DNA from: an uncultured virus (IMG/VR IMGVR_UViG_3300043773_001986)
Lineage: Duplodnaviria; Heunggongvirae; Uroviricota; Caudoviricetes
Strand: one strand, 5' to 3'
Virus record (IMG/VR): IMGVR_UViG_3300043773_001986
Length of the DNA stretch: 20,000 bases
Positions 1,462 through 12,492 of this stretch are shown here, one piece after another. Numbering within the stretch: position 1 is the stretch's first letter; every line of letters starts with the position of its first letter. The notes under the pieces are model-generated. The model had not been told where the DNA came from. It ran no database searches and saw nothing but the letters and a program-made list of their open reading frames with translations. The position numbers were made by a program, and so were the translations under genes.

Positions 1462-4400
1462 TTAACTATTGAATGAAACTTTTCCATCAAATGTTTGAGT
1501 ATCTTGATTAGTATTAGTGGTACTAAAAACATTTTTTATATTTGTTTCTTGTGTTGCATTAGTATTTTGGTTAGGTATCGTTGTATAATTAAATTTTCTT
1601 GTTTTACCTTTAGGATAAAGTTTTTCGTCAGGACTACTTAAGAAATTTTTTAAATATTTATCTTTTCTTAGTTCTTTGAACATTTTTTCCTCTTCCGCTA
1701 ATTCCTTATCATATTTATTAGCTAACTTATTTACTATCTGTGTAAATTGATTTTTTAAATTTAGTGGGTCTGAAATTTTAAGAAGTTCCCCTTTAATTAT
1801 ACTATTAATAAAACCATCCCTTTTATTTTTATCAGAGAATATTCTTGATATAACCATAAAGAAAAGAAGTTCAGAATTATCTTTAAATAAAGAATCATTC
1901 AATGGAAAAATTTCATCTAAACCTTCTTCTGTTGTTATAATTGTATATTTTGCCTCAGTTTCCAATCCTGACAAATAATCATTATAGTCAATCAATGCTT
2001 CGTAAACTTTCTCATAATCATAAGATAATTCCTCAGTAGTGTTAGTTGGTTTTGGACTACTTTCCAAACTTGATGCTGTTACTTCTGAAGTACCTGTTAA
2101 GTTATAAACTCTCGGTTTATTACCATTCAAAAGTTTTCCATCAGTATTTTCACTTATTAAATTTATTTGTCGTATTAAGTAAACAAAATCTTGTTCAAAC
2201 TTTATAAACTCTTGTGTTATAGTTGTAATACCATTCTCAAATTCAGATTGAAGTGTTTTAAAATACTCTTTCATATTTTGTTTAACTCCTTTAATTGCTG
2301 GTGAATCTAATCCAAATTTTTTAGCATTTAATTCTTCAATAATTATGTTAGCATCATCATCAATATCATCAGTTACATTTTTAAATAAAGTGGCCAATGT
2401 TTCACCAACACTAGATGGTGCACCCCAGATTGGTGTATCTTGGTTTGCCCAAGTTGCTCCTTTCATTAAACCAGTCGTATATAATCTTTTTTGATTCACC
2501 AATTGTAGAATTCCATAATTATAATTTAGTGTAATCTTTTCTAATGTATTAAGTGTGTTATTGAAATAACCTACACTTTGGTCTATTAATGTGTCCATTA
2601 CTTTTCCGTATGAGATTTCACCATTTTGACCATTAGGTACTGGTATATTTGTAATAATTTCACCTATAGTTGAACCACCAGGATTTGTCTGTGGTGGTGT
2701 TGAATTTTGAGTTGTCGCAGCTTCTTCTCCTGCGGTTAAAGAAGTAATAATTTCTTGGTCTACAACTTTATAACTTTCATCAGTAGGTGTTGCTCTTTCA
2801 TCATATATTTCTGTGTTAGCATAATAGTTGAATGATAAAGCATTCTGTAATTGTTCTACAGGACCTTTAAGACCCATACCACCAATAATGTCAAATCCCA
2901 TTTTTACTGAAACTATCATTGGTTGTAATCCAATACCTTCAGGATTCATATCAAATTGACCATCTTTTTCGTATGTAAAACTAACACTTTTAGGTATTAT
3001 CTTTGTATTGTAAAAATCTCCTATTCTAAGTATTAGAACTGGTGGTGCACCAAATGCAGTATTTTGAGCATCATTGTATCTTGGTTTACCATCAGGACCT
3101 ATTGTTGGTATCGTTTCACCAGGTTTTGTACATTGATTCAAGAAAGTTAGACGAGCATTTAAGCCTTCAGGTGTCATAGAATGGAAAGCCGGATTGAAAT
3201 ACTTTATTTTTTCAACAATTGAAGTATATACCATAGGATTTTCTTCCTTCAATACTTCAAAATAATCACATTCACTAAATAAGTTTCTCAATATTTTTTT
3301 ACCAATACCATCTTTAAGTTTTTTAACAATATCTACAGTTGGTTGAACTCTATCTACAGGTCTACTTGATACAACATCAACTTGTTGTGTTTTGACTTCT
3401 TTTTGTTCTTCAACATTCGGTTGTTCAATAGTTTCAATATCGGGTACATCAACAACAATTGATTTTATTATAACTCTTCTACAAGCCATTGCATTTACAG
3501 AATATACTTGTGATTGAAAAGTGATAGCACCAGTTGTACTTTTAATATCCTCAGTACAATTTACTTCAAAACCTGGTGTACCATCTGCCGATTTGGGAAC
3601 AACACTTTTAGCTTGTTCACCACTTGCAATTTCTTTAATTATTAGTTTTTTATCATCAATAAATTTTTGTAAATTAGCATCTCCGATTTTAAAAGATTTT
3701 AAGAAACTTTCAACTGAATCTATTCTTCTTTGTGACAATTTTTTATTGTAATCAACTGACGCAGTCGCTGAGGCAGCACCCTCCATTTCTATAGTAATAG
3801 TTCCTTTTTTATTATTCAATAAATCAAAGGCATCAGTAATAAAATTCTTTTGTCCACTTGAAACTTTTTCATAATTTGTTTTTACAACAGAATCGAAAAA
3901 CTCGTTGACATTTTTGGCTCTATTACAAAATTCAACATTTTGTTTACAATAAGTTCCACCTGAAGCAAAAGCTGATTCAGCATTCGTTTTATAAGTTTCT
4001 TTTTTTGAAATATAACCATCATAAGTACTATTATATGGAATATCACCAGATGATGGAATATCATTGTCAAAATAAAAACCTATACCTAAATAGGCATCAA
4101 CAAAAGCTTGTTTAGCTGGGTCTGGTGTAGTTTTTTTGACACCCTGAGGTGGAGTAACATTTCCTCCATCTTGTCCTCCAAGTGGTACATTTTCTTTTGA
4201 TATTTCTGTTATAACTTGACCAAGTTCTTCTTTGGTTAATCTTGGATTATTAATAACCTCTTGGTATGTATATAATTCAGACAATGGTATTGTATTAAAT
4301 TTTTTAGCTAATTCGTAAATGTCAAATTTTACACAACCTGCAAAAAATGAATCAACTATTGAATCAATTTTTTCTTTAGTTTGACCCTTAAGTTGTTTTT

Positions 4401-6501
4401 GAACAATTGTGTTCATAACAGAAGGATGGTCGACTATGATTTTCCAATTTACTGAACCACTTCTACTTGATTTTGAGTAAGTATATATAGGTTCAGGTCT
4501 ACCAATAAAAGTTGTTGCATCGAAGGATACATCAGCACTATCTTCAAATGTTAAATCATAGGGTGGGAACCACATAATTCTACCACCATTAGGTCCTCTT
4601 TCACATGCAGGTAAATCATCATATGTAAACCCAGGTTTACTTGATGTTCTCCAAGCAAGATTTTCAATTGAGAACATATATTTTTTAGCAACAACTTGAC
4701 CTTTTGCATTTGGTTGTAGATTTGTTGAACCAGGATTTTTGAGTGGTGCTATGTTTAAATTATAAGTGTTGTCCAATACAGAATAGTCAAATCTTCTACC
4801 TGATTTAGTAATACCATCTGATTTCTGTAAATCACCATAAGTGTAATAAGGTGTATCTTTTGCAAATACCCTACAATATTCAATACCCGCTTCAGCACCA
4901 GTAGTGTTATCTCTATATGATAAAACTCTTGAACCTTTTGTTAATTCTTTATATCCATCGTTGAAAACTTTACTAACTTGATTAATTGCATTTCCAACGT
5001 GTTTTAATCTCGAAATACCATTAACTAAATCCGCCGAATTAACAAGACGTTGAGTTGCATCTAAAATAGAACTTTCTTTGAATTGTAAATTTGTTGATTC
5101 GTTACTTGTATATTGTGAACTTATTAAATTAAATTCCTCATCTTGTGAACCAGTACCACCACCAGGTGTTGCTTTAAAACCAGCATCACTTTTATATTTA
5201 GGTGAAACCCACACAAATTGACCATCAATACCTCCACCATCAGATGATGATTTACCAGCCAAACCAAAATTTAATCGACCAATATTTCCTTCATATAAAC
5301 TACCCAACTCACTAGGTCCATAAACCGGTGTTTGTACTTGTCTTCCGAATGGGTCAATAGGTATTTGTAAAGGTGGTGATGTAATAGTCGATGGTTCAGA
5401 TGTTCTACTACCCACATAGTAACCACCATTCAAAGTACCATTTTGATTTATTGTACTTTCAGTTTGTGCAAATTGTGAAGTTCTTGTATATTGTGCTCTA
5501 TATCTATTATAATCAATATTAGCAAATAAAGCTGATTGTTGACCTGTACCAGTGTTATCAATGAAATTCTGTGATGGATTCGTTGTAATATTTAAGGTGA
5601 GTGGTAAACCTCCACCTCCAGTTGTTAAATTAGGTACGTTAAGAGCTAATGATATTTGTGTGGATGAACCAGCATTAAAAAGTACAGGGTCAAAATAATC
5701 ACCAGCAATAGGTGATACAGGAAAATATGCACCCCCCAAACTTTGTATAAATGGTGATTCATTAGTTGGTGTTGTTGGTACTGTAATAGTCCAATTTTTA
5801 GACCTCAAGGGTTCTTTACCCGCAATAATTAAAGAAATATCAAAAGGGTCACTTGTTGTATCAAGAGTCAAAGTGCCTTGTGTATTTCTTCTTGTATCAG
5901 CATCAACTCTGTCCTGAAAAAGTTTTTTTAAAGTTTGAGCCCCAAGCTTAGCTAAATATGAATCTTGTGATAATAATCCACTATCACCAGCGGGGTCAGG
6001 AGAAATTAGAATCTGATATGGACTATAGGAAGAGGGTACAAAAGTTGGGGGATTCCAATATGGTGTATATAACTTATTATTGTTTTGTATGTTATCAATA
6101 ATAACCATATCATTGAATCCTCCCACAGGACCATATCTGTTTTCGATATATGCTGCGTCAATAAAAAATTCATTAACTAAATCTAGTACTGTGTCGTTTG
6201 GACTATATTCACCTTGATTAGAACTATTAATTATTGGTGGGTTATTGTATGTGATTGTATAATTATATCCACCTTCAGGTCCATACTCATTCAACGGATA
6301 AAGTTGTCTTACAAATGGATTCTGTGAGATTAAATCATCAGGTGAATTAATAACATTGTAATCACTTAAACTTGTTTCATATGTTCTAGTACCAACAGGT
6401 GCTGTATAAACACCAGTCACTGCATAGGGGGGTAAATTCCTATTCAGTAAACTATTTCTAAAACTTGATGTTGATGCAAACGATAATGAACTTTCGGACA
6501 T
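1462..6501 (-). CDS. Large baseplate / tube-initiator-like protein with internal OmpA-like domain
   Basis: 1679 aa; tube-initiator-like segments (FPPYDLTF...FIGRPEPIYTYSKSSRSG; PPVLILRIGDFYNTKII...QPMIVSVKMGF) flank FYFDND...GAASATASVDYNKKLSQRRIDSV...CRRV; lies between the tape measure and LysM genes. Confidence 0.7.
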   Translation of the reverse strand: MSESSLSFASTSSFRNSLLNRNLPPYAVTGVYTAPVGTRTYETSLSDYNVINSPDDLISQNPFVRQLYPLNEYGPEGGYNYTITYNNPPIINSSNQGEYSPNDTVLDLVNEFFIDAAYIENRYGPVGGFNDMVIIDNIQNNNKLYTPYWNPPTFVPSSYSPYQILISPDPAGDSGLLSQDSYLAKLGAQTLKKLFQDRVDADTRRNTQGTLTLDTTSDPFDISLIIAGKEPLRSKNWTITVPTTPTNESPFIQSLGGAYFPVSPIAGDYFDPVLFNAGSSTQISLALNVPNLTTGGGGLPLTLNITTNPSQNFIDNTGTGQQSALFANIDYNRYRAQYTRTSQFAQTESTINQNGTLNGGYYVGSRTSEPSTITSPPLQIPIDPFGRQVQTPVYGPSELGSLYEGNIGRLNFGLAGKSSSDGGGIDGQFVWVSPKYKSDAGFKATPGGGTGSQDEEFNLISSQYTSNESTNLQFKESSILDATQRLVNSADLVNGISRLKHVGNAINQVSKVFNDGYKELTKGSRVLSYRDNTTGAEAGIEYCRVFAKDTPYYTYGDLQKSDGITKSGRRFDYSVLDNTYNLNIAPLKNPGSTNLQPNAKGQVVAKKYMFSIENLAWRTSSKPGFTYDDLPACERGPNGGRIMWFPPYDLTFEDSADVSFDATTFIGRPEPIYTYSKSSRSGSVNWKIIVDHPSVMNTIVQKQLKGQTKEKIDSIVDSFFAGCVKFDIYELAKKFNTIPLSELYTYQEVINNPRLTKEELGQVITEISKENVPLGGQDGGNVTPPQGVKKTTPDPAKQAFVDAYLGIGFYFDNDIPSSGDIPYNSTYDGYISKKETYKTNAESAFASGGTYCKQNVEFCNRAKNVNEFFDSVVKTNYEKVSSGQKNFITDAFDLLNNKKGTITIEMEGAASATASVDYNKKLSQRRIDSVESFLKSFKIGDANLQKFIDDKKLIIKEIASGEQAKSVVPKSADGTPGFEVNCTEDIKSTTGAITFQSQVYSVNAMACRRVIIKSIVVDVPDIETIEQPNVEEQKEVKTQQVDVVSSRPVDRVQPTVDIVKKLKDGIGKKILRNLFSECDYFEVLKEENPMVYTSIVEKIKYFNPAFHSMTPEGLNARLTFLNQCTKPGETIPTIGPDGKPRYNDAQNTAFGAPPVLILRIGDFYNTKIIPKSVSFTYEKDGQFDMNPEGIGLQPMIVSVKMGFDIIGGMGLKGPVEQLQNALSFNYYANTEIYDERATPTDESYKVVDQEIITSLTAGEEAATTQNSTPPQTNPGGSTIGEIITNIPVPNGQNGEISYGKVMDTLIDQSVGYFNNTLNTLEKITLNYNYGILQLVNQKRLYTTGLMKGATWANQDTPIWGAPSSVGETLATLFKNVTDDIDDDANIIIEELNAKKFGLDSPAIKGVKQNMKEYFKTLQSEFENGITTITQEFIKFEQDFVYLIRQINLISENTDGKLLNGNKPRVYNLTGTSEVTASSLESSPKPTNTTEELSYDYEKVYEALIDYNDYLSGLETEAKYTIITTEEGLDEIFPLNDSLFKDNSELLFFMVISRIFSDKNKRDGFINSIIKGELLKISDPLNLKNQFTQIVNKLANKYDKELAEEEKMFKELRKDKYLKNFLSSPDEKLYPKGKTRKFNYTTIPNQNTNATQETNIKNVFSTTNTNQDTQTFDGKVSFNS

Positions 6502-6539: not shown

Positions 6540-8351
6540 TCATCTACCAAAATTCATATTTTGTTGTGATGGAGTTTGTTTACCTGTTGGGTCTTTGGCC
6601 ATTTGAGCAATCATTTGAATAAACTCAGGTTTTTTCATAAGTTCATTCAACACTCTTTCGACCTCAGTGGTATTTACACCAGGTGGGGCTGAAAAAGTTA
6701 CATTTAAATTACCACTATAATTTAAGTTTTGAGTTGTTGGTGCTTGTACTTGTTTTTGTAATTTATCCAAATAACTCATTTCAGTTGTTTTCGGTGTTGT
6801 GGTAGTTGCTACTTGAGTTTTAGTTTTTTCATCCTCACCAGTCAAAATACTTCCAACTTTAGATTCTTTATACACAACACTAGCTTTTTCCATTTTTTCC
6901 TTAAACATATTGTAAAACTCGTTGGCCATATTACTGCCAGCCTCACCAGCTCCTTTGAAATCACCTTTGAATAAACTTTTAATCAAATCATCTGACTGAG
7001 TTCCAATACCTTGTCTAATTCCCTTTTCTGAAAATGTTTCTGTTTTTTCTTTACCTTCTTTATCCTTAGTTGTTCTCTTTAATACTTCGATACCATTTTT
7101 ATAAATTTCTATCTCAGCCCTACTTAATCTTTCACCACCTTTGGATGCTGCTAAACCATAACCCATAGTGTCAGCAATCATAGCCAACAATATTTCTTGG
7201 TTTTCTTGGACAGTAAGTTGTTCTTTTGCCAACTCTTCCATCGTTTTAGGTTCTTGGTCTTTCATAAATTTGTCTAAAGCATCTTTGTCTTTAGCAAAAG
7301 TTTCCATAGCTTTATCTATTCCCATTTGAGTACCATCAACGGTTAAAGTCATTTCACCACCAGGACCTATTTCTGATAAATTAGCTATGAAGTTTCTTTG
7401 TTCTTCAGTAAATGTTGCAGGAAATTTAATTTTACTCAATTTCATATCGAGTTCTTTTGAGCCAGTTGCCATTTTTGCTAATTCATCATAACTCATTCCC
7501 ATTTCTTTGGCAATCTCTCTTAGTTGTCTTTTTGCACCAGGCATAATTTCGAAACGACCATCTTTATTAAGCTGAACAAATTTTTCTGACATTTTGGACA
7601 TTTGATTCATCAATTCACCAGGGTCATTCTGTGCCATATCCATCAATCGAAGTGGGTCTAATAATTCAGATTGTGTAACACCTAATCTTTGTAATGCCGC
7701 CGACATTTCTATAGCTTTGTCAGGTTCGAATAAACTTTCGGATAATGTAAAAACTTCTTCCATATTTATTCTTAAAACTTTAGCCTGAGCTACCATTTTA
7801 GTTAACCCTTCTATACCACCTTTAAAATTAAATGTATTAAGTTTAGTTAAATTTTTTGCTACCTCATCTGAAACACCTTGAGCATTAACTCCCATTTTTC
7901 TTGAGATGTCAACTACTTTCTGCATTTGGTCTTGTACACCCATATATGAAACACCAACATCTTTGAATTTTTTTGCCATATCATCAACTTCCAAACCAGT
8001 AACCTTAGCTGTTGCTATTAATCCTTTATACGCTTGATTATTTAATATGACATTCCTACCCAAATCAGAGGATATTGATGTTTGAATAGCTGATATATCA
8101 GAAAATTTTCCACCCAATTCTTTAACATCACCAACAACATCTGTCATTGCTGCTTTTATGCTCAATATATTAGTTCTACCAACACCAAAAGATTTTGCGA
8201 CACCAATTGCAGCACCCTCTACTTCATCAAAAACTTTTTTTAAACTAGCAGGTTTTACATTTGATAATACAGCGTCACCAAAGTTTTCTCCAATTTCCTG
8301 AAATTGTTTTTCTATACCACTTAAGAGTGATTTACCATCGTCTCCACCCAT
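6540..8351 (-). CDS. Tape measure-like protein
   Basis: 603 aa, helical-looking A/K/E/M/Q-rich sequence directly downstream of tube and chaperone genes. Confidence 0.7.
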   Translation of the reverse strand: MGGDDGKSLLSGIEKQFQEIGENFGDAVLSNVKPASLKKVFDEVEGAAIGVAKSFGVGRTNILSIKAAMTDVVGDVKELGGKFSDISAIQTSISSDLGRNVILNNQAYKGLIATAKVTGLEVDDMAKKFKDVGVSYMGVQDQMQKVVDISRKMGVNAQGVSDEVAKNLTKLNTFNFKGGIEGLTKMVAQAKVLRINMEEVFTLSESLFEPDKAIEMSAALQRLGVTQSELLDPLRLMDMAQNDPGELMNQMSKMSEKFVQLNKDGRFEIMPGAKRQLREIAKEMGMSYDELAKMATGSKELDMKLSKIKFPATFTEEQRNFIANLSEIGPGGEMTLTVDGTQMGIDKAMETFAKDKDALDKFMKDQEPKTMEELAKEQLTVQENQEILLAMIADTMGYGLAASKGGERLSRAEIEIYKNGIEVLKRTTKDKEGKEKTETFSEKGIRQGIGTQSDDLIKSLFKGDFKGAGEAGSNMANEFYNMFKEKMEKASVVYKESKVGSILTGEDEKTKTQVATTTTPKTTEMSYLDKLQKQVQAPTTQNLNYSGNLNVTFSAPPGVNTTEVERVLNELMKKPEFIQMIAQMAKDPTGKQTPSQQNMNFGR

Positions 8352-8372: not shown

Positions 8373-8413
8373 AATACCACACACCTTTTTTTATTTTTCA
8401 GATGTGTGGTATT
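8373..8413 (-). terminator. Stem-loop, possible intrinsic terminator at the end of the chaperone extension ORF
   Basis: 11-bp perfect inverted repeat AATACCACACA (8373-8383) / TGTGTGGTATT (8403-8413), extendable to 14 bp with a G-U pair on the minus-strand RNA, followed by UAUUUAU. Confidence 0.55.
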
Positions 8414-8549
8414 CTATAATTTTATTGACTAAATATTTTCTTGAGTATGTTGGTAAATTTAAAAAATCGGTATATGATGTATGAAGAAATTTACCCAATA
8501 AAAAATACTCATCTAATAATACTTCTCTATACTTAGAAGAAAGGGCGAA
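8391..8549 (-). CDS. Chaperone C-terminal extension (lambda gpT / T4 gp51-like) in the +1 frame, no ATG
   Basis: Reads (F)ALSSKYREVLLDEYFLLGKFLHTSYTDFLNLPTYSRKYLVNKIIEYHTSEK*, stop at 8391-8393; fills the gap between chaperone and tape measure genes. Confidence 0.75.
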   Translation of the reverse strand, partial: FALSSKYREVLLDEYFLLGKFLHTSYTDFLNLPTYSRKYLVNKIIEYHTSEK

Positions 8550-9291
8550 AAAATTCAACACCAAAGGTGACCTCCAAATTCACCTGTTCACCTGATGGTG
8601 CTCTAACAACTCTTTTTAAATCCAAAGATGGTTCATTTTCTTTTATGAATTTTTTAATAAATTTTGAATCCATAATTGGAAGATTATTTACCATTTGTGA
8701 AATTTTTTCTCTATCTGTCTCACCATTAATTTCAACAATATGTTTCATTAATTTCCAAGTAACTCTTGGAGGTGTCATATTAGTAGGATAACTTTCAACC
8801 ATTTTATCTATTTCAATGATTTCACCATAAGTCAGTGGTTTAAGTTTTACATTCGCTTCACTACGTGGTAATTTTACATTGTAATGTCCGTTTTCATCAG
8901 GTGTTGAATTTGGTTTAACAATATTTAATTCATCCAAAACTATTGTAGCTTCGAATGGTTTGTTTGTTAATGGGTCAGTCAATGTGAGTGTGTATTCAGG
9001 ACCGAAAGATGTATTTCTCAAATAAATTAGAATTGCTTCAACATCACCCTCTAAAAGTTCTTCGGGTCTGATATCTGTTTCGTAAAGTTTACTTCGTATT
9101 AAAGTAGTAACAACATTTACATTAGGATTAGAAATTCCCCCTAAAATTATGTTTTCATCATTAGCTGTAAGGTAACCAACTTTTACAGATTTCTTTTTGT
9201 TCTTATAAAAAATACCACCCGATGGTAAAGGAACTACATCGTGTGGTAAATTAAAATTTTCAGTACCGGCTTTTAATATATTAGCATCCAT
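8533..9291 (-). CDS. Tail assembly / baseplate hub assembly chaperone (T4 gp26-like)
   Basis: 252 aa; VPLPSGG...VKVGYLTANDENII...GDVEAILIYLRNTSFG, VKLPRS..VKLKPLT, C-terminal VEFFRPFF; between tube and tape measure. Confidence 0.8.
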   Translation of the reverse strand: MDANILKAGTENFNLPHDVVPLPSGGIFYKNKKKSVKVGYLTANDENIILGGISNPNVNVVTTLIRSKLYETDIRPEELLEGDVEAILIYLRNTSFGPEYTLTLTDPLTNKPFEATIVLDELNIVKPNSTPDENGHYNVKLPRSEANVKLKPLTYGEIIEIDKMVESYPTNMTPPRVTWKLMKHIVEINGETDREKISQMVNNLPIMDSKFIKKFIKENEPSLDLKRVVRAPSGEQVNLEVTFGVEFFRPFF

Positions 9292-9344: not shown

Positions 9345-9833
9345 TTAGTATACTAATATACATCTATCCATTCTAAGGTTTGCTTGGATTGTTGCTATTT
9401 TGTCATCACTATATGATAGTCCTTGAAAATCAACGTTAGTTAAAAAACAACCCTCAAGTATCCATTTTTCAACAACTACACCAGTTGGGTCTAACATCTC
9501 CAAATCAACATTTTTCTTATATCCCGCAGCATACCCCATACGACCTGTTACAGATTCAGCATGAAGACGAACCCATTCCATAAGTGCTTGTGCTGCAGAT
9601 GGACCGATAGGGTCTCTAAAAGTAACAGAAATTTCTTCCCAGTTAAATCTACCTGCAACATATGTTGAAGTGTTTAAAAATGGGATTTCAACCGAGTTTA
9701 TCTTAACTTTTGGTCTAGATGTTGATTCCACGAACCATTCATTAATACCTAAAGAAGAAGGAAATCTCATAATAAACCTATTCTGTCTTTTAGGTTCATA
9801 AGGTATGGGCATTTTCATCAATAAATCAGCCAT
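9345..9833 (-). CDS. Tail tube protein (T4 gp19-like)
   Basis: 162 aa; YEPKRQNRF, YVAGRFNWEEISVTFRDPI, YKKNVDLEMLDPTGVVVEKWILEGCF are typical tube motifs. Confidence 0.92.
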   Translation of the reverse strand: MADLLMKMPIPYEPKRQNRFIMRFPSSLGINEWFVESTSRPKVKINSVEIPFLNTSTYVAGRFNWEEISVTFRDPIGPSAAQALMEWVRLHAESVTGRMGYAAGYKKNVDLEMLDPTGVVVEKWILEGCFLTNVDFQGLSYSDDKIATIQANLRMDRCILVY

Positions 9834-10908: not shown

Positions 10909-12432
10909 TTATCGTAATGATAGCTCAAATTTTAACGAACCACAATCCCAAATTCTATCATAACCTTTTAGTTTCATAATTTCCCACTCTGTCATATTTT
11001 TATCATAACCCTCCTTAACAAGTACATCCTTTCTAAACACAAATCTATGATGTCTATTTAGATATTTATCAGTTTTAATATACCAATAATTTGGTGGTGT
11101 TTTTGATGTATATTGAAAACCATTTTTGTGATAAACTGTGTTGTTTGGATTAATACCCGACCATCTGATATCTGCAAAAGTTTCTATTTTATGTGGATTG
11201 ATGTTATTGATAAAATATTTTAACAATTTAGAGAATCCTCCAACAATTGTAGTGAACTTTTTATTACTAAATCGGATTAATTCATATTCGTCAGAAATGA
11301 TATCTTTATTACCTAACGATTTTCTTTTTTTTCCAAAAGTCATTACAGATACTAATTCATTTTCAAAAAAAAGACCATATCTAAATTTATCAATAGTATA
11401 ACCTTGTAAATGATTTTCATTCAAAAATTCCATAGATTGTTTTTTTGTGATTTCTTGAGCATTACATTTTCTACCATAAATTTTACTATTTAAATTCAAT
11501 TTACTCGATAACTTAGATAATACGATATCTGTTTTTAACATAATTTCATCTTCATAGAATTGAATCAAATTAATATTTTTATCATTCGAAAGAATCGTTT
11601 TGTCAATATGATATAATTTTGTCTTTTCTCCACTTATTTCAGAATGAAAATAATTACCATTTACCTCAATTCCAAGATTGAAATCGGGTAAAAAAATATC
11701 AATTTCTTTACCATTTAATATTTTTCTGTCGGCATCAATATGTTTTATATTATTCGTATTTAAAAAATCTTTAATTTTTTGTTCTAAGTTGGAATTTTTG
11801 GTAATTGGGTAACATTTTCTACAGATTGGTATTTTACCACTACCTAATAATGTACTACTAAAAATGTTTTCACATTTAGTACACTCGAAAGTATAAGATT
11901 GTGAGGTATTACCATTTTTATTTTGTTTATAATCATCTAATAACTTCAAATTTTGTTCATCTAATTTGGGGAGTAGTTTGTCTAAATGTTTTATTTTAAT
12001 TGTGTTTTTTAATTTATCCACAAATTCTTGTAAATACATAGGACTCTTAACTCCATACTTCTCTATGAAAAGTTTATCTCTATTTTTTTTAAACTCATCT
12101 AATTTGAATAAAGAATCCTCACCATACTTTTCATATAACACTTGTTTCGACTTGTTAATTCTATTTTCTTTATTGACCTCTTTTTTATTCCAAATTGTTC
12201 TACATTCATTGGAACAAAGTTTTCTTTCGTGTTTTTTTCTTTCTGTAAAACTATTACCACATTGGATACAAGTTCTGTTTTCCCTCACGCTTTCATCTTT
12301 CTCCTTACCAAGTATCTTATTTTTTTTAGCATACTCAAAATAACAAGTTCTATCACAGAATTTTTTATCTCTATGTTTATAATCTGTAACAAACATATTC
12401 GTACAATTCATACATTTTAATTCAATTTTCAT
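10909..12432 (-). CDS. Free-standing Hef-like homing endonuclease: Zn-finger repeats, Vsr/PD-(D/E)XK-like nuclease, GNAT/Mom-like C-terminal domain
   Basis: ATG at 12432 (507 aa) preferred over the track's 12465 start; two CxxC...CxxxC repeats, EKYG repeats, another Zn ribbon, SNLE...EIDIFLPDFNLGIEVNGNYFHS, then FLNENHLQG...ELIRF...VGGFSKLL...FADIRWS. Confidence 0.75.
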   Translation of the reverse strand: MKIELKCMNCTNMFVTDYKHRDKKFCDRTCYFEYAKKNKILGKEKDESVRENRTCIQCGNSFTERKKHERKLCSNECRTIWNKKEVNKENRINKSKQVLYEKYGEDSLFKLDEFKKNRDKLFIEKYGVKSPMYLQEFVDKLKNTIKIKHLDKLLPKLDEQNLKLLDDYKQNKNGNTSQSYTFECTKCENIFSSTLLGSGKIPICRKCYPITKNSNLEQKIKDFLNTNNIKHIDADRKILNGKEIDIFLPDFNLGIEVNGNYFHSEISGEKTKLYHIDKTILSNDKNINLIQFYEDEIMLKTDIVLSKLSSKLNLNSKIYGRKCNAQEITKKQSMEFLNENHLQGYTIDKFRYGLFFENELVSVMTFGKKRKSLGNKDIISDEYELIRFSNKKFTTIVGGFSKLLKYFINNINPHKIETFADIRWSGINPNNTVYHKNGFQYTSKTPPNYWYIKTDKYLNRHHRFVFRKDVLVKEGYDKNMTEWEIMKLKGYDRIWDCGSLKFELSLR

Positions 12433-12492
12433 AGGTAAATTATTTTTTAATGTAACAAACACCAATCTACATATAAATATAGGATATTTAAT

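Follow-up and report, generated by a model that had tools for sequence, protein, structure and literature searches.

Closest described systems

Frameshifting in the tail assembly chaperone (TAC) genes of tailed phages is already known, as are +1 chaperone shifts and UUU_C shift sites in bacteria. Chaperone frameshifts are widespread and may be −1, −2 or +1 (PMC5009743). The locus analysed here lies in a 20,000-nucleotide stretch of DNA from an uncultured virus (IMGVR_UViG_3300043773_001986; Caudoviricetes), hereafter the window. It shares with lambda gpG/gpGT (Levin 1993; Xu, Hendrix and Duda 2004; via PMC5009743) a short and a long chaperone predicted from one gene, which is placed between the tail tube gene and, by position, the tape measure gene. 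In lambda, however, the shift is −1 on X XXY YYZ with a structure 3′ of the site, whereas the window carries a putative +1 site at a single-tRNA UUU_C with a structure 5′ of it. The chaperone of the archaeal myovirus HSTV-2, with a ‘very likely’ +1 shift (PMC5009743), has the same direction but an archaeal host. A preliminary description of this DNA had regarded the mechanism as unusual for a gp26/gp51-like pair; +1 chaperone shifts have already been reported (HSTV-2). The window gene, from an uncultured giant bacterial virus, very probably yields its two proteins by an uncommon version of the short/long-protein trick used by many tailed phages.

The T4-like TAC genes belong to the same Pfam family as the window gene (PF12322), and the family likewise has a poly-U shift at the end of the short product (TAC-N) and genes in which the long product (TAC-NC) is encoded in frame. 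Vladimirov et al. 2022 (Virology 566:9) reportedly identified these T4-like TAC genes and is said to name gp26 and gp51 as the short/fused pair. Two later articles cite that work, one for poly-T chaperone signals of T4-like phages given as −1 (PMC12846349) and the other for separate short and fused TAC genes (PMC10885494).

The UUU_Y sequence is prone to +1 shifting in bacteria (PMC5009743), and a UUUC site in FseA of a Mesorhizobium ICE (msi172-msi171) gives a +1 shift of 4–13% (PMC4755241). FseA shares with the window the proposed slip of a bacterial tRNA-Phe from UUU to UUC with a sense codon in the A site, a G-rich stretch about four codons upstream, and the coexistence of fused and split forms. 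FseA is a transcription activator, whereas the window gene encodes a chaperone, and its upstream G's are interpreted either as a G-rich region or as the signal of a Trp-Gly peptide, whereas those of the window pair in a covarying stem (PMC4755241). Influenza PA-X (UCC_UUU_CGU) and related eukaryotic-virus sites have in common with the window a P-site UUU_C slip and a CGN codon in the A site. However, PA-X is translated by a eukaryotic ribosome with UCC in the E site and CGU in the A site, whereas in the window family the E-site codon is UUU and CGC and CGG dominate; in the accessible portion of that article no 5′ hairpin is described (PMC3498833). Besides PA-X, a precedent named in the preliminary description, there is the bacterial UUU_Y/UUUC +1 site of FseA, which is the best precedent.

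In yeast and 70S systems, +1 shifting is stimulated by engineered upstream hairpins, which are regarded as mimicking the Shine-Dalgarno (SD) duplex (PMC3639245, PMC6321510). Such hairpins, and those of SARS-CoV, which attenuate −1 and stimulate +1 shifting, share with the window a stem-loop a few nucleotides 5′ of the site and a proposed role as SD-duplex mimic; their +1 effects come from synthetic constructs, whereas the hairpin of the window is a natural, conserved candidate stimulator (PMC3639245, PMC6321510). The window did not match the RF2 (prfB)-type +1 shift: its A site holds a sense codon, with the stop four codons further on, and its G-run, which ends 8 nt upstream of the P codon, is paired within a stem. 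A literature search with little coverage of subscription journals turned up no paper that describes this +1 site or its hairpin.

Genomic context and identity of the chaperone gene

The window carries a myophage tail module on the minus strand, in the order sheath, tube, a 252-aa PF12322/phrog_150 gene and a 603-aa gene. The 252-aa protein (8533..9291, minus strand), the product of normal decoding, is a T4 gp26-like tail assembly chaperone by its matches to PF12322 (Pfam, E 1e-9) and phrog_150 (E 5e-14), and is called TAC-N below. Its upstream neighbour (9345..9833, minus strand) is a tail tube gene (phrog_4542 tail tube, E 8e-27). For its downstream neighbour (603 aa, 6540..8351, minus strand), a family search of Pfam/PHROG type gave no significant match. 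The gene in the same position is annotated as tape measure in LIS04, HSE3, SP-15 and immuto_3-5A, and by position the 603-aa gene is probably the tape measure gene. The chaperone gene is thus flanked by tail tube and (by position) tape measure genes, as in G/GT-type loci.

The AlphaFold model of TAC-N had a pLDDT of 86. Its top three matches among 48,161 chains were 3FGX (Z 6.5), 2OB9 (HK97 TAC, Z 5.7) and 3KLU (Z 5.7), with rmsd values of 3.1–4.7 and Z scores that are all middling (5.7–6.5); 3FGX and 3KLU we take to be tail assembly chaperones as well. Foldseek compared the model with 2OB9 at a probability of 0.82 and an E of 0.41, and returned nothing at E 0.001. On these middling scores, the model is consistent with a TAC fold, and the TAC-like fold of 2OB9 would be shared with the conserved TAC frameshift systems. 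The protein may hold two TAC-fold repeats, residues 8–105 resembling 3FGX and residues 134–222 resembling 2OB9. T4 gp26 could be aligned with TAC-N end to end, with a probability of only 4.4%, and has the same terminal FF. No match was obtained between TAC-N and T4 gp51, and no second PF12322 gene was found among the 10 window proteins scanned.

Two other genes of the region were noted. A 518-aa Cys-rich ORF (10909–12465, minus strand), located between the sheath and tube region genes, resembles by eye a free-standing homing endonuclease. A 1679-aa tail-region protein (1462–6501, minus strand) contains a weak OmpA-like (peptidoglycan-binding) domain at residues 886–944 (E 0.002).

Homologue sets and the +1 frame

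Homologous loci were collected by a protein scan of viral contigs (the best 80 of 369), by a DNA pattern search open to either Phe codon, every Arg codon and all Gly codons (at least 120 loci), and by a metagenome scan (63 loci). From the 200 loci of the protein scan and DNA pattern search, 48 with short flanks were removed; the remaining 152 contained 108 unique sequences, 83 of them below 90% identity. Addition of 30 sequences from L208–L262 gave 113 non-redundant homologues. A wider set of 86 loci (74 scan loci and 12 named phage records) was examined apart.

It was found that the +1 frame of the window continues, as previously described, for 51 codons, from 8546 to a TAA at 8393–8391. This extension (TAC-C; 8391..8546, minus strand) corresponds to the T domain of G/GT systems, and a shift after F248 gives 248 + 51 = 299 aa, the fusion length of ∼299 aa proposed earlier. 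The +1 frame was open in all 113 homologues, whereas the other two frames had stops in 112 and 113 of 113. Its length in the 83-sequence set was 48–61 codons. In 35 close pairs, 322 synonymous versus 114 non-synonymous changes were counted, and on the evidence of these counts the +1 frame is coding and under purifying selection. The reported lack of an ATG in this ORF held for the window but not for the homologues, in which 76/83 have an ATG inside, scattered from codon 9 on. Comparison of the homologues thus brought out a conserved, out-of-frame overlapping ORF that lacks a conserved start of its own, as in G/GT-type pairs. The −1 frame closes early in the window as stated, although after 11 codons instead of about 12; the median in the 83-sequence set was also 11 codons, and 112/113 homologues have stops in this frame.

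Family matches of TAC-C were weak (DUF6760 in 6/61 members, phrog_634 in 1/61), and T4 gp51 gave no significant match to the TAC-C profile. Among 60 proteins related to P0254, 31 matched the same profile at the C-terminus, in one frame with TAC-N. In 29 of the 31 in-frame fusions, there was a Phe two places before the boundary together with the spacing of the +1 product, and in most of the 31 the junction reads F-hydrophobic-x-L-x-x-x-Y/H, which is the +1 spacing. P0254-type fusions are known as proteins only, because no DNA locus was found for P0254. Many members of this in-frame TAC-NC clade (31; P0254, P0273–P0304) have CxxC pairs. P0271 was left out of consideration, as was P0272, whose in-frame junction comes from one contig with a truncated start; both are probably errors of assembly.

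The GenBank records of LIS04 (L083, 2202–2433) and Slickus01 (L275, 1923–2126) carry no annotation for the TAC-C ORF, and those of SP-15 and immuto start it at an internal ATG.

Conservation of the shift site

The chaperone gene ends on the minus strand with GAA UUU UUU CGC CCU UUC UUC UAA, which confirmed the sequence given earlier, and the shift site UUU UUU CGC occupies 8545..8553 (P-site UUU 8550–8548, A-site CGC 8547–8545). The second Phe codon was TTT in 113/113 homologues, compared with a TTT share of 79% elsewhere in the gene; the first was TTT in 110/113, and the base after the second UUU was C in 113/113. All 85 wider loci scored, two −1 loci included, had UUU followed by C or U. An in-frame UUU followed by a pyrimidine, the UUU_Y arrangement of FseA, is therefore invariant.

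The codon after UUU UUU was CGC in 44, CGG in 37, CGT in 28, CGA in 3 and CTC in 1 of the 113 homologues. Where Arg occurs at the site it was encoded by CGN in 112/112 and never by AGR, whereas elsewhere in the gene AGR accounted for 653/760 Arg codons and CGN for 107/760. CGG and CGC together made up 81/112 codons at the site versus 7/760 elsewhere in the gene. On the tree, the third base of the Arg codon changed 37 times and its first-base C not once. Among 144 columns tested, the three strongest synonymous biases were at Arg, Gly(−3) and Ala(−16) (G of 759, 503 and 405; median 7.7). This pattern of constraint points to a real, conserved recoding site.

The preliminary description had CGC, a seemingly rare codon, waiting in the A site. 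Its rarity was borne out. In a 194-kb record with 99.9% identity to the window, the 143 ORFs contain 53,461 codons, among which CGC and CGG are the least used, at 4 each, and one of these 4 CGC codons is that of the shift site. As a cause, a hungry codon is only partly supported, because the third base of the Arg codon also sets the first +1-frame residue (A, G, V or D) and this residue (G/A/V) also constrains the codon; the enrichment of CGC and CGG may reflect the +1-frame residue (A/G). CGC and CGU are read by one shared tRNA (PMC3498833). The 66%-complete record encodes 15 phage tRNAs, including Arg(UCU); Arg(ACG/CCG) and Phe tRNAs are not among these 15, which is weak evidence in an incomplete record.

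Stem-loop upstream of the shift site

The preliminary description recognised the slip motif but missed a conserved stem-loop upstream of it (8557..8602, minus strand). This RNA stem-loop, predicted by folding and covariation and proposed as the +1 stimulator, ends 3 nt before the U-run in the window, and the distance between hairpin end and U-run was 3–5 nt overall. The window hairpin had a predicted energy of −16.1 kcal/mol, and only 7 of 1000 synonymous variants were as stable; against dinucleotide shuffles the effect was modest (z −1.7, 11/200). In 38/113 sequences, the mean synonymous-shuffle z was −2.7 in the 51-nt segment with the hairpin versus −0.9 to +0.3 in the 12 other segments of the gene.

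The 144-column codon scan showed synonymous bias within the stem-loop region, with Ala231 as GCC in 89/91, Gly234 as GGA in 111/113 and Gly244 as GGG in 110/113. CCCC (−47 to −44) was paired with GGGG (−9 to −6) in 110/113 single-sequence folds, and the window itself has an A-U pair where 110/113 have C-G. In a model with a 6-pair outer and a 9-pair inner helix, itself derived from the sequences used to score covariation, 84.7% of cells were paired versus 35–57% in slid controls. Changes on both sides of the stem numbered 175 versus 72 ± 7 in shuffles (0/500 as high), and 28 compensatory events were placed on the tree, of which the inner helix had 23 versus 1–7 in slid registers; relatedness and the codon patterns of beta-hairpins inflate these covariation counts. 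The outer stem is mostly invariant, 2/6 pairs never varying, and 16S rRNA is another possible partner of its GGGG.

In L014, a close relative of the window, one outer pair is broken and the fold is different. The hairpin was weak or absent in several distant +1 loci, e.g. L265, L267, L328 and LIS04; therefore it is not needed across the family. We consider the stem-loop the likely stimulator of the shift, standing in for the SD duplex. A natural 5′ stem-loop before a sense-codon +1 site, as predicted here, would be the most interesting part of the system.

Several other elements were considered for the site. An internal SD was no longer the main reading of the conserved GGGG after its partner, CCCC, had come to light, paired with it in 110/113 folds. 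A hairpin pairing GGGG with CCUU across the site proved to be an artefact of an alignment whose start lay too far downstream, and it showed no both-side changes. The 5′ bulge UCAGGAGAA (8595–8587, minus strand; homologue positions −42 to −34) is conserved in sequence and SD-like; its Gly is GGA in 111/113, and GGT in the window. It is complementary, without covariation, to UUCUUCUGA at the stop, and a long-range pairing of the two was rejected, being broken in 42/113 at one position and uncompensated. A downstream stimulator was also rejected, the 3′ fold of the window being unremarkable (z −0.9). At the site there was no terminator-like match, and 6 promoter-like matches were found versus 7.3 expected.

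Host and translation context

The 194-kb record showed A-rich leaders and SD-free starts (143 ATG starts). A ribosomal protein bS21 is encoded on record G001, 99.9% identical to the window (E 1e-12). Phage-encoded bS21 and SD-free, A-rich starts are shared with the bS21-encoding Bacteroidetes jumbo myophages of Chen et al. 2022. Phages that encode bS21 are predicted to infect Bacteroidetes (PMC9723584, in which the word ‘frameshift’ has 0 occurrences), and the ribosomes of Bacteroidia do not recognise SD sequences (PMC10798248). From bS21 and the SD-free starts, a Bacteroidota host is probable. The bS21 gene (L271, G001:C1:161457-161615) has a Tyr near the C-terminus of its product that resembles the Tyr54 discussed in PMC9723584.

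Alternative origins of the second product

According to the preliminary description, the small ORF might instead be a separate gene, started independently at TTG 8564 (or GTG 8561 or TTG 8558) after GGAGG. These elements are present where it placed them (8558..8575, minus strand; GGAGG at 8575–8571), with GGAGG 6 nt before the 8564 TTG, and the small ORF is annotated as its own gene in some cultured phages. A TTG is found at that position, four codons upstream of the site, in 70/83 homologues, because the Phe-Gly codons (TTT GGN) create it; GGAG or GAGG, however, precedes it in only 3/83, and GTG(−3) occurs in 1/83, so that the arrangement in the window is not conserved. The 8564 TTG is partly inside the predicted stem. 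Comparison further showed that 10/113 homologues have no ATG, GTG or TTG up to the conserved Tyr, which amounts to 8 independent losses when placed on a tree that excluded this region, and that in 6/113 a stop interrupts the +1 frame one codon upstream of the U-run, so that the shift is also confined to the run. The phage has no SD at its starts, and since GGAGG precedes none of the 143 ATG starts of the 194-kb record (99.9% identical to the window), separate initiation is unlikely. It would also leave the invariant UUU-C unexplained. The preliminary description had expected that, with a separate gene, homologues would lose UUU-CG and keep a start; the alignment showed the opposite, UUU-C being kept in 113/113 while the alternative starts get lost. 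We regard a separate gene as highly improbable, although such a start could provide an accessory route within the sub-lineage of the window.

The same description left the direction as +1 (or −2), and both re-pairings are possible on the U6 run of the window. A −2 ribosomal slip of the P-site tRNA-Phe, such as the Mu chaperone uses (PMC3498833), would add one Phe, and with a TTT first codon it is feasible in 110/113. It is not feasible in relatives with a single TTT: the sequence is TTC TTT C in 3/113 homologues of 3 separate origins, TTC TTT CGT in GXN1 and HSE3, CTG TTT CGC in BRock and AAC TTT CTA in LR756508, and re-pairing of tRNA-Phe at −2 is impossible on any of these. (The +1 ORF was confirmed by the TAC-C profile for HSE3 and LR756508; for GXN1, BRock and QdP_Psa3 it was assigned by position only, the profile score not being significant.) Moreover, −2 re-pairing does not need the invariant C after UUU, the extra Phe is missing from the natural in-frame fusions, and a longer U-run is avoided: just before the run GAT was found 2 times versus 39 for GAC, where 72% GAT was expected, and in one of the two GAT cases the run is broken by TTC. 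The three-U relatives and the 31 same-register fusions therefore favour +1 over −2, and with the avoided extra U the question leans to +1; a −2 slip is the least probable of the readings weighed here. The fusion register does not discriminate a ribosomal shift from programmed transcriptional realignment, in which a nascent hairpin beside the RNA–DNA hybrid over U6 would make RNA polymerase skip one U, since the resulting 299-aa protein is identical. Its geometry would be close to that of Roseiflexus IS630, where a nascent stem-loop next to U5C5 yields transcripts minus one base (PMC5009743), and a hairpin end 3–5 nt before the run suits it. However, 3/113 hairpin-keeping homologues, as well as GXN1, HSE3 and BRock, have only three U's. 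Context-free slippage needs about 9 A/T (PMC5009743). Selection acts against a seventh U, the run keeps to the codon phase throughout, and the bias of the next codon to the rare CGG and CGC is easier to explain at the ribosome. One 151-nt RNA contig of a relative spans the site without an indel (two runs, contigs not reads, 6–9% of words), which is uninformative on this point. Realignment during transcription, the best placed of these three alternatives, is still quite unlikely.

Proposed mechanism and significance

Weighing these observations, we think it probable that programmed +1 ribosomal frameshifting produces a lambda G/GT-type chaperone pair from one gene, through a single-tRNA slip from UUU to UUC that a slow CGN codon and the hairpin would assist. 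Most ribosomes would stop at 8535–8533 and release the 252-aa TAC-N. In a minority, peptidyl-tRNA-Phe would sit on the second UUU with a slowly read CGC in the A site; the tRNA would slide by one base to pair with UUC, and 51 more codons would be translated to give the 299-aa TAC-NC. The stem-loop at 8602–8557 might refold on leaving the ribosome, in the space taken by an SD duplex, and so push the shift forward; refolded, it would also damp −1 slips on the U-run. By analogy, an efficiency of a few percent may be expected. Their roles would follow lambda, with TAC-N covering the tape measure protein and TAC-NC, the scarcer form, bringing in subunits of the tail tube.

A broader proposal is put forward tentatively, with somewhat more doubt than confidence: that a 5′ stem-loop, by refolding where the mRNA leaves the bacterial ribosome, is a natural, widespread substitute for the SD duplex in stimulating a sense-codon +1 shift, that it was selected since the anti-SD of the hosts is sequestered, and that the same family switches between +1 shift, −1 shift and in-frame fusion at one homologous FF. 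Within the literature searched, upstream hairpins that push ribosomes to +1 were shown only in engineered constructs. More than 100 divergent natural copies with compensatory changes would provide a test set for the hairpin mechanism in bacteria, and for what makes SD-blind Bacteroidota ribosomes shift frame. The results also suggest a change of annotation: in these jumbo phages, the small ORF that follows the ‘baseplate hub’ gene, at present ‘hypothetical’ or unannotated, should be labelled as the C-terminal portion of a chaperone, and the same probably applies to the cultured phages SP-15 and Flavobacterium phage immuto.

Shift direction within the family

In the window, the extension lies in the +1 frame and not in the −1 frame of a lambda-type X XXY YYZ shift. 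Searched by frame in the 86 wider loci, the TAC-C match was in +1 in 77, in −1 in 1 (LR756511) and weak or absent in 8, whereas the signals of T4-like chaperone genes are described as −1 (PMC12846349). The direction of the chaperone shift thus appears to be evolutionarily flexible at a single site in this family.

At the homologous FF, LR756511 (L274) and Xanthomonas phage XacN1 (L276) have T TTT TTC and T TTT TTT, respectively, and use the −1 frame, in which XacN1 has its long ORF; the TAC-C profile confirmed this frame for LR756511 (E 4e-10) and only weakly for XacN1. In the FFWP subgroup (L278–L324), the +1 frame is open 15–51 codons upstream of the stop region, and many members share TTT CTT CCN CTT about 6 codons before the FF; therefore the shift may lie further upstream there.
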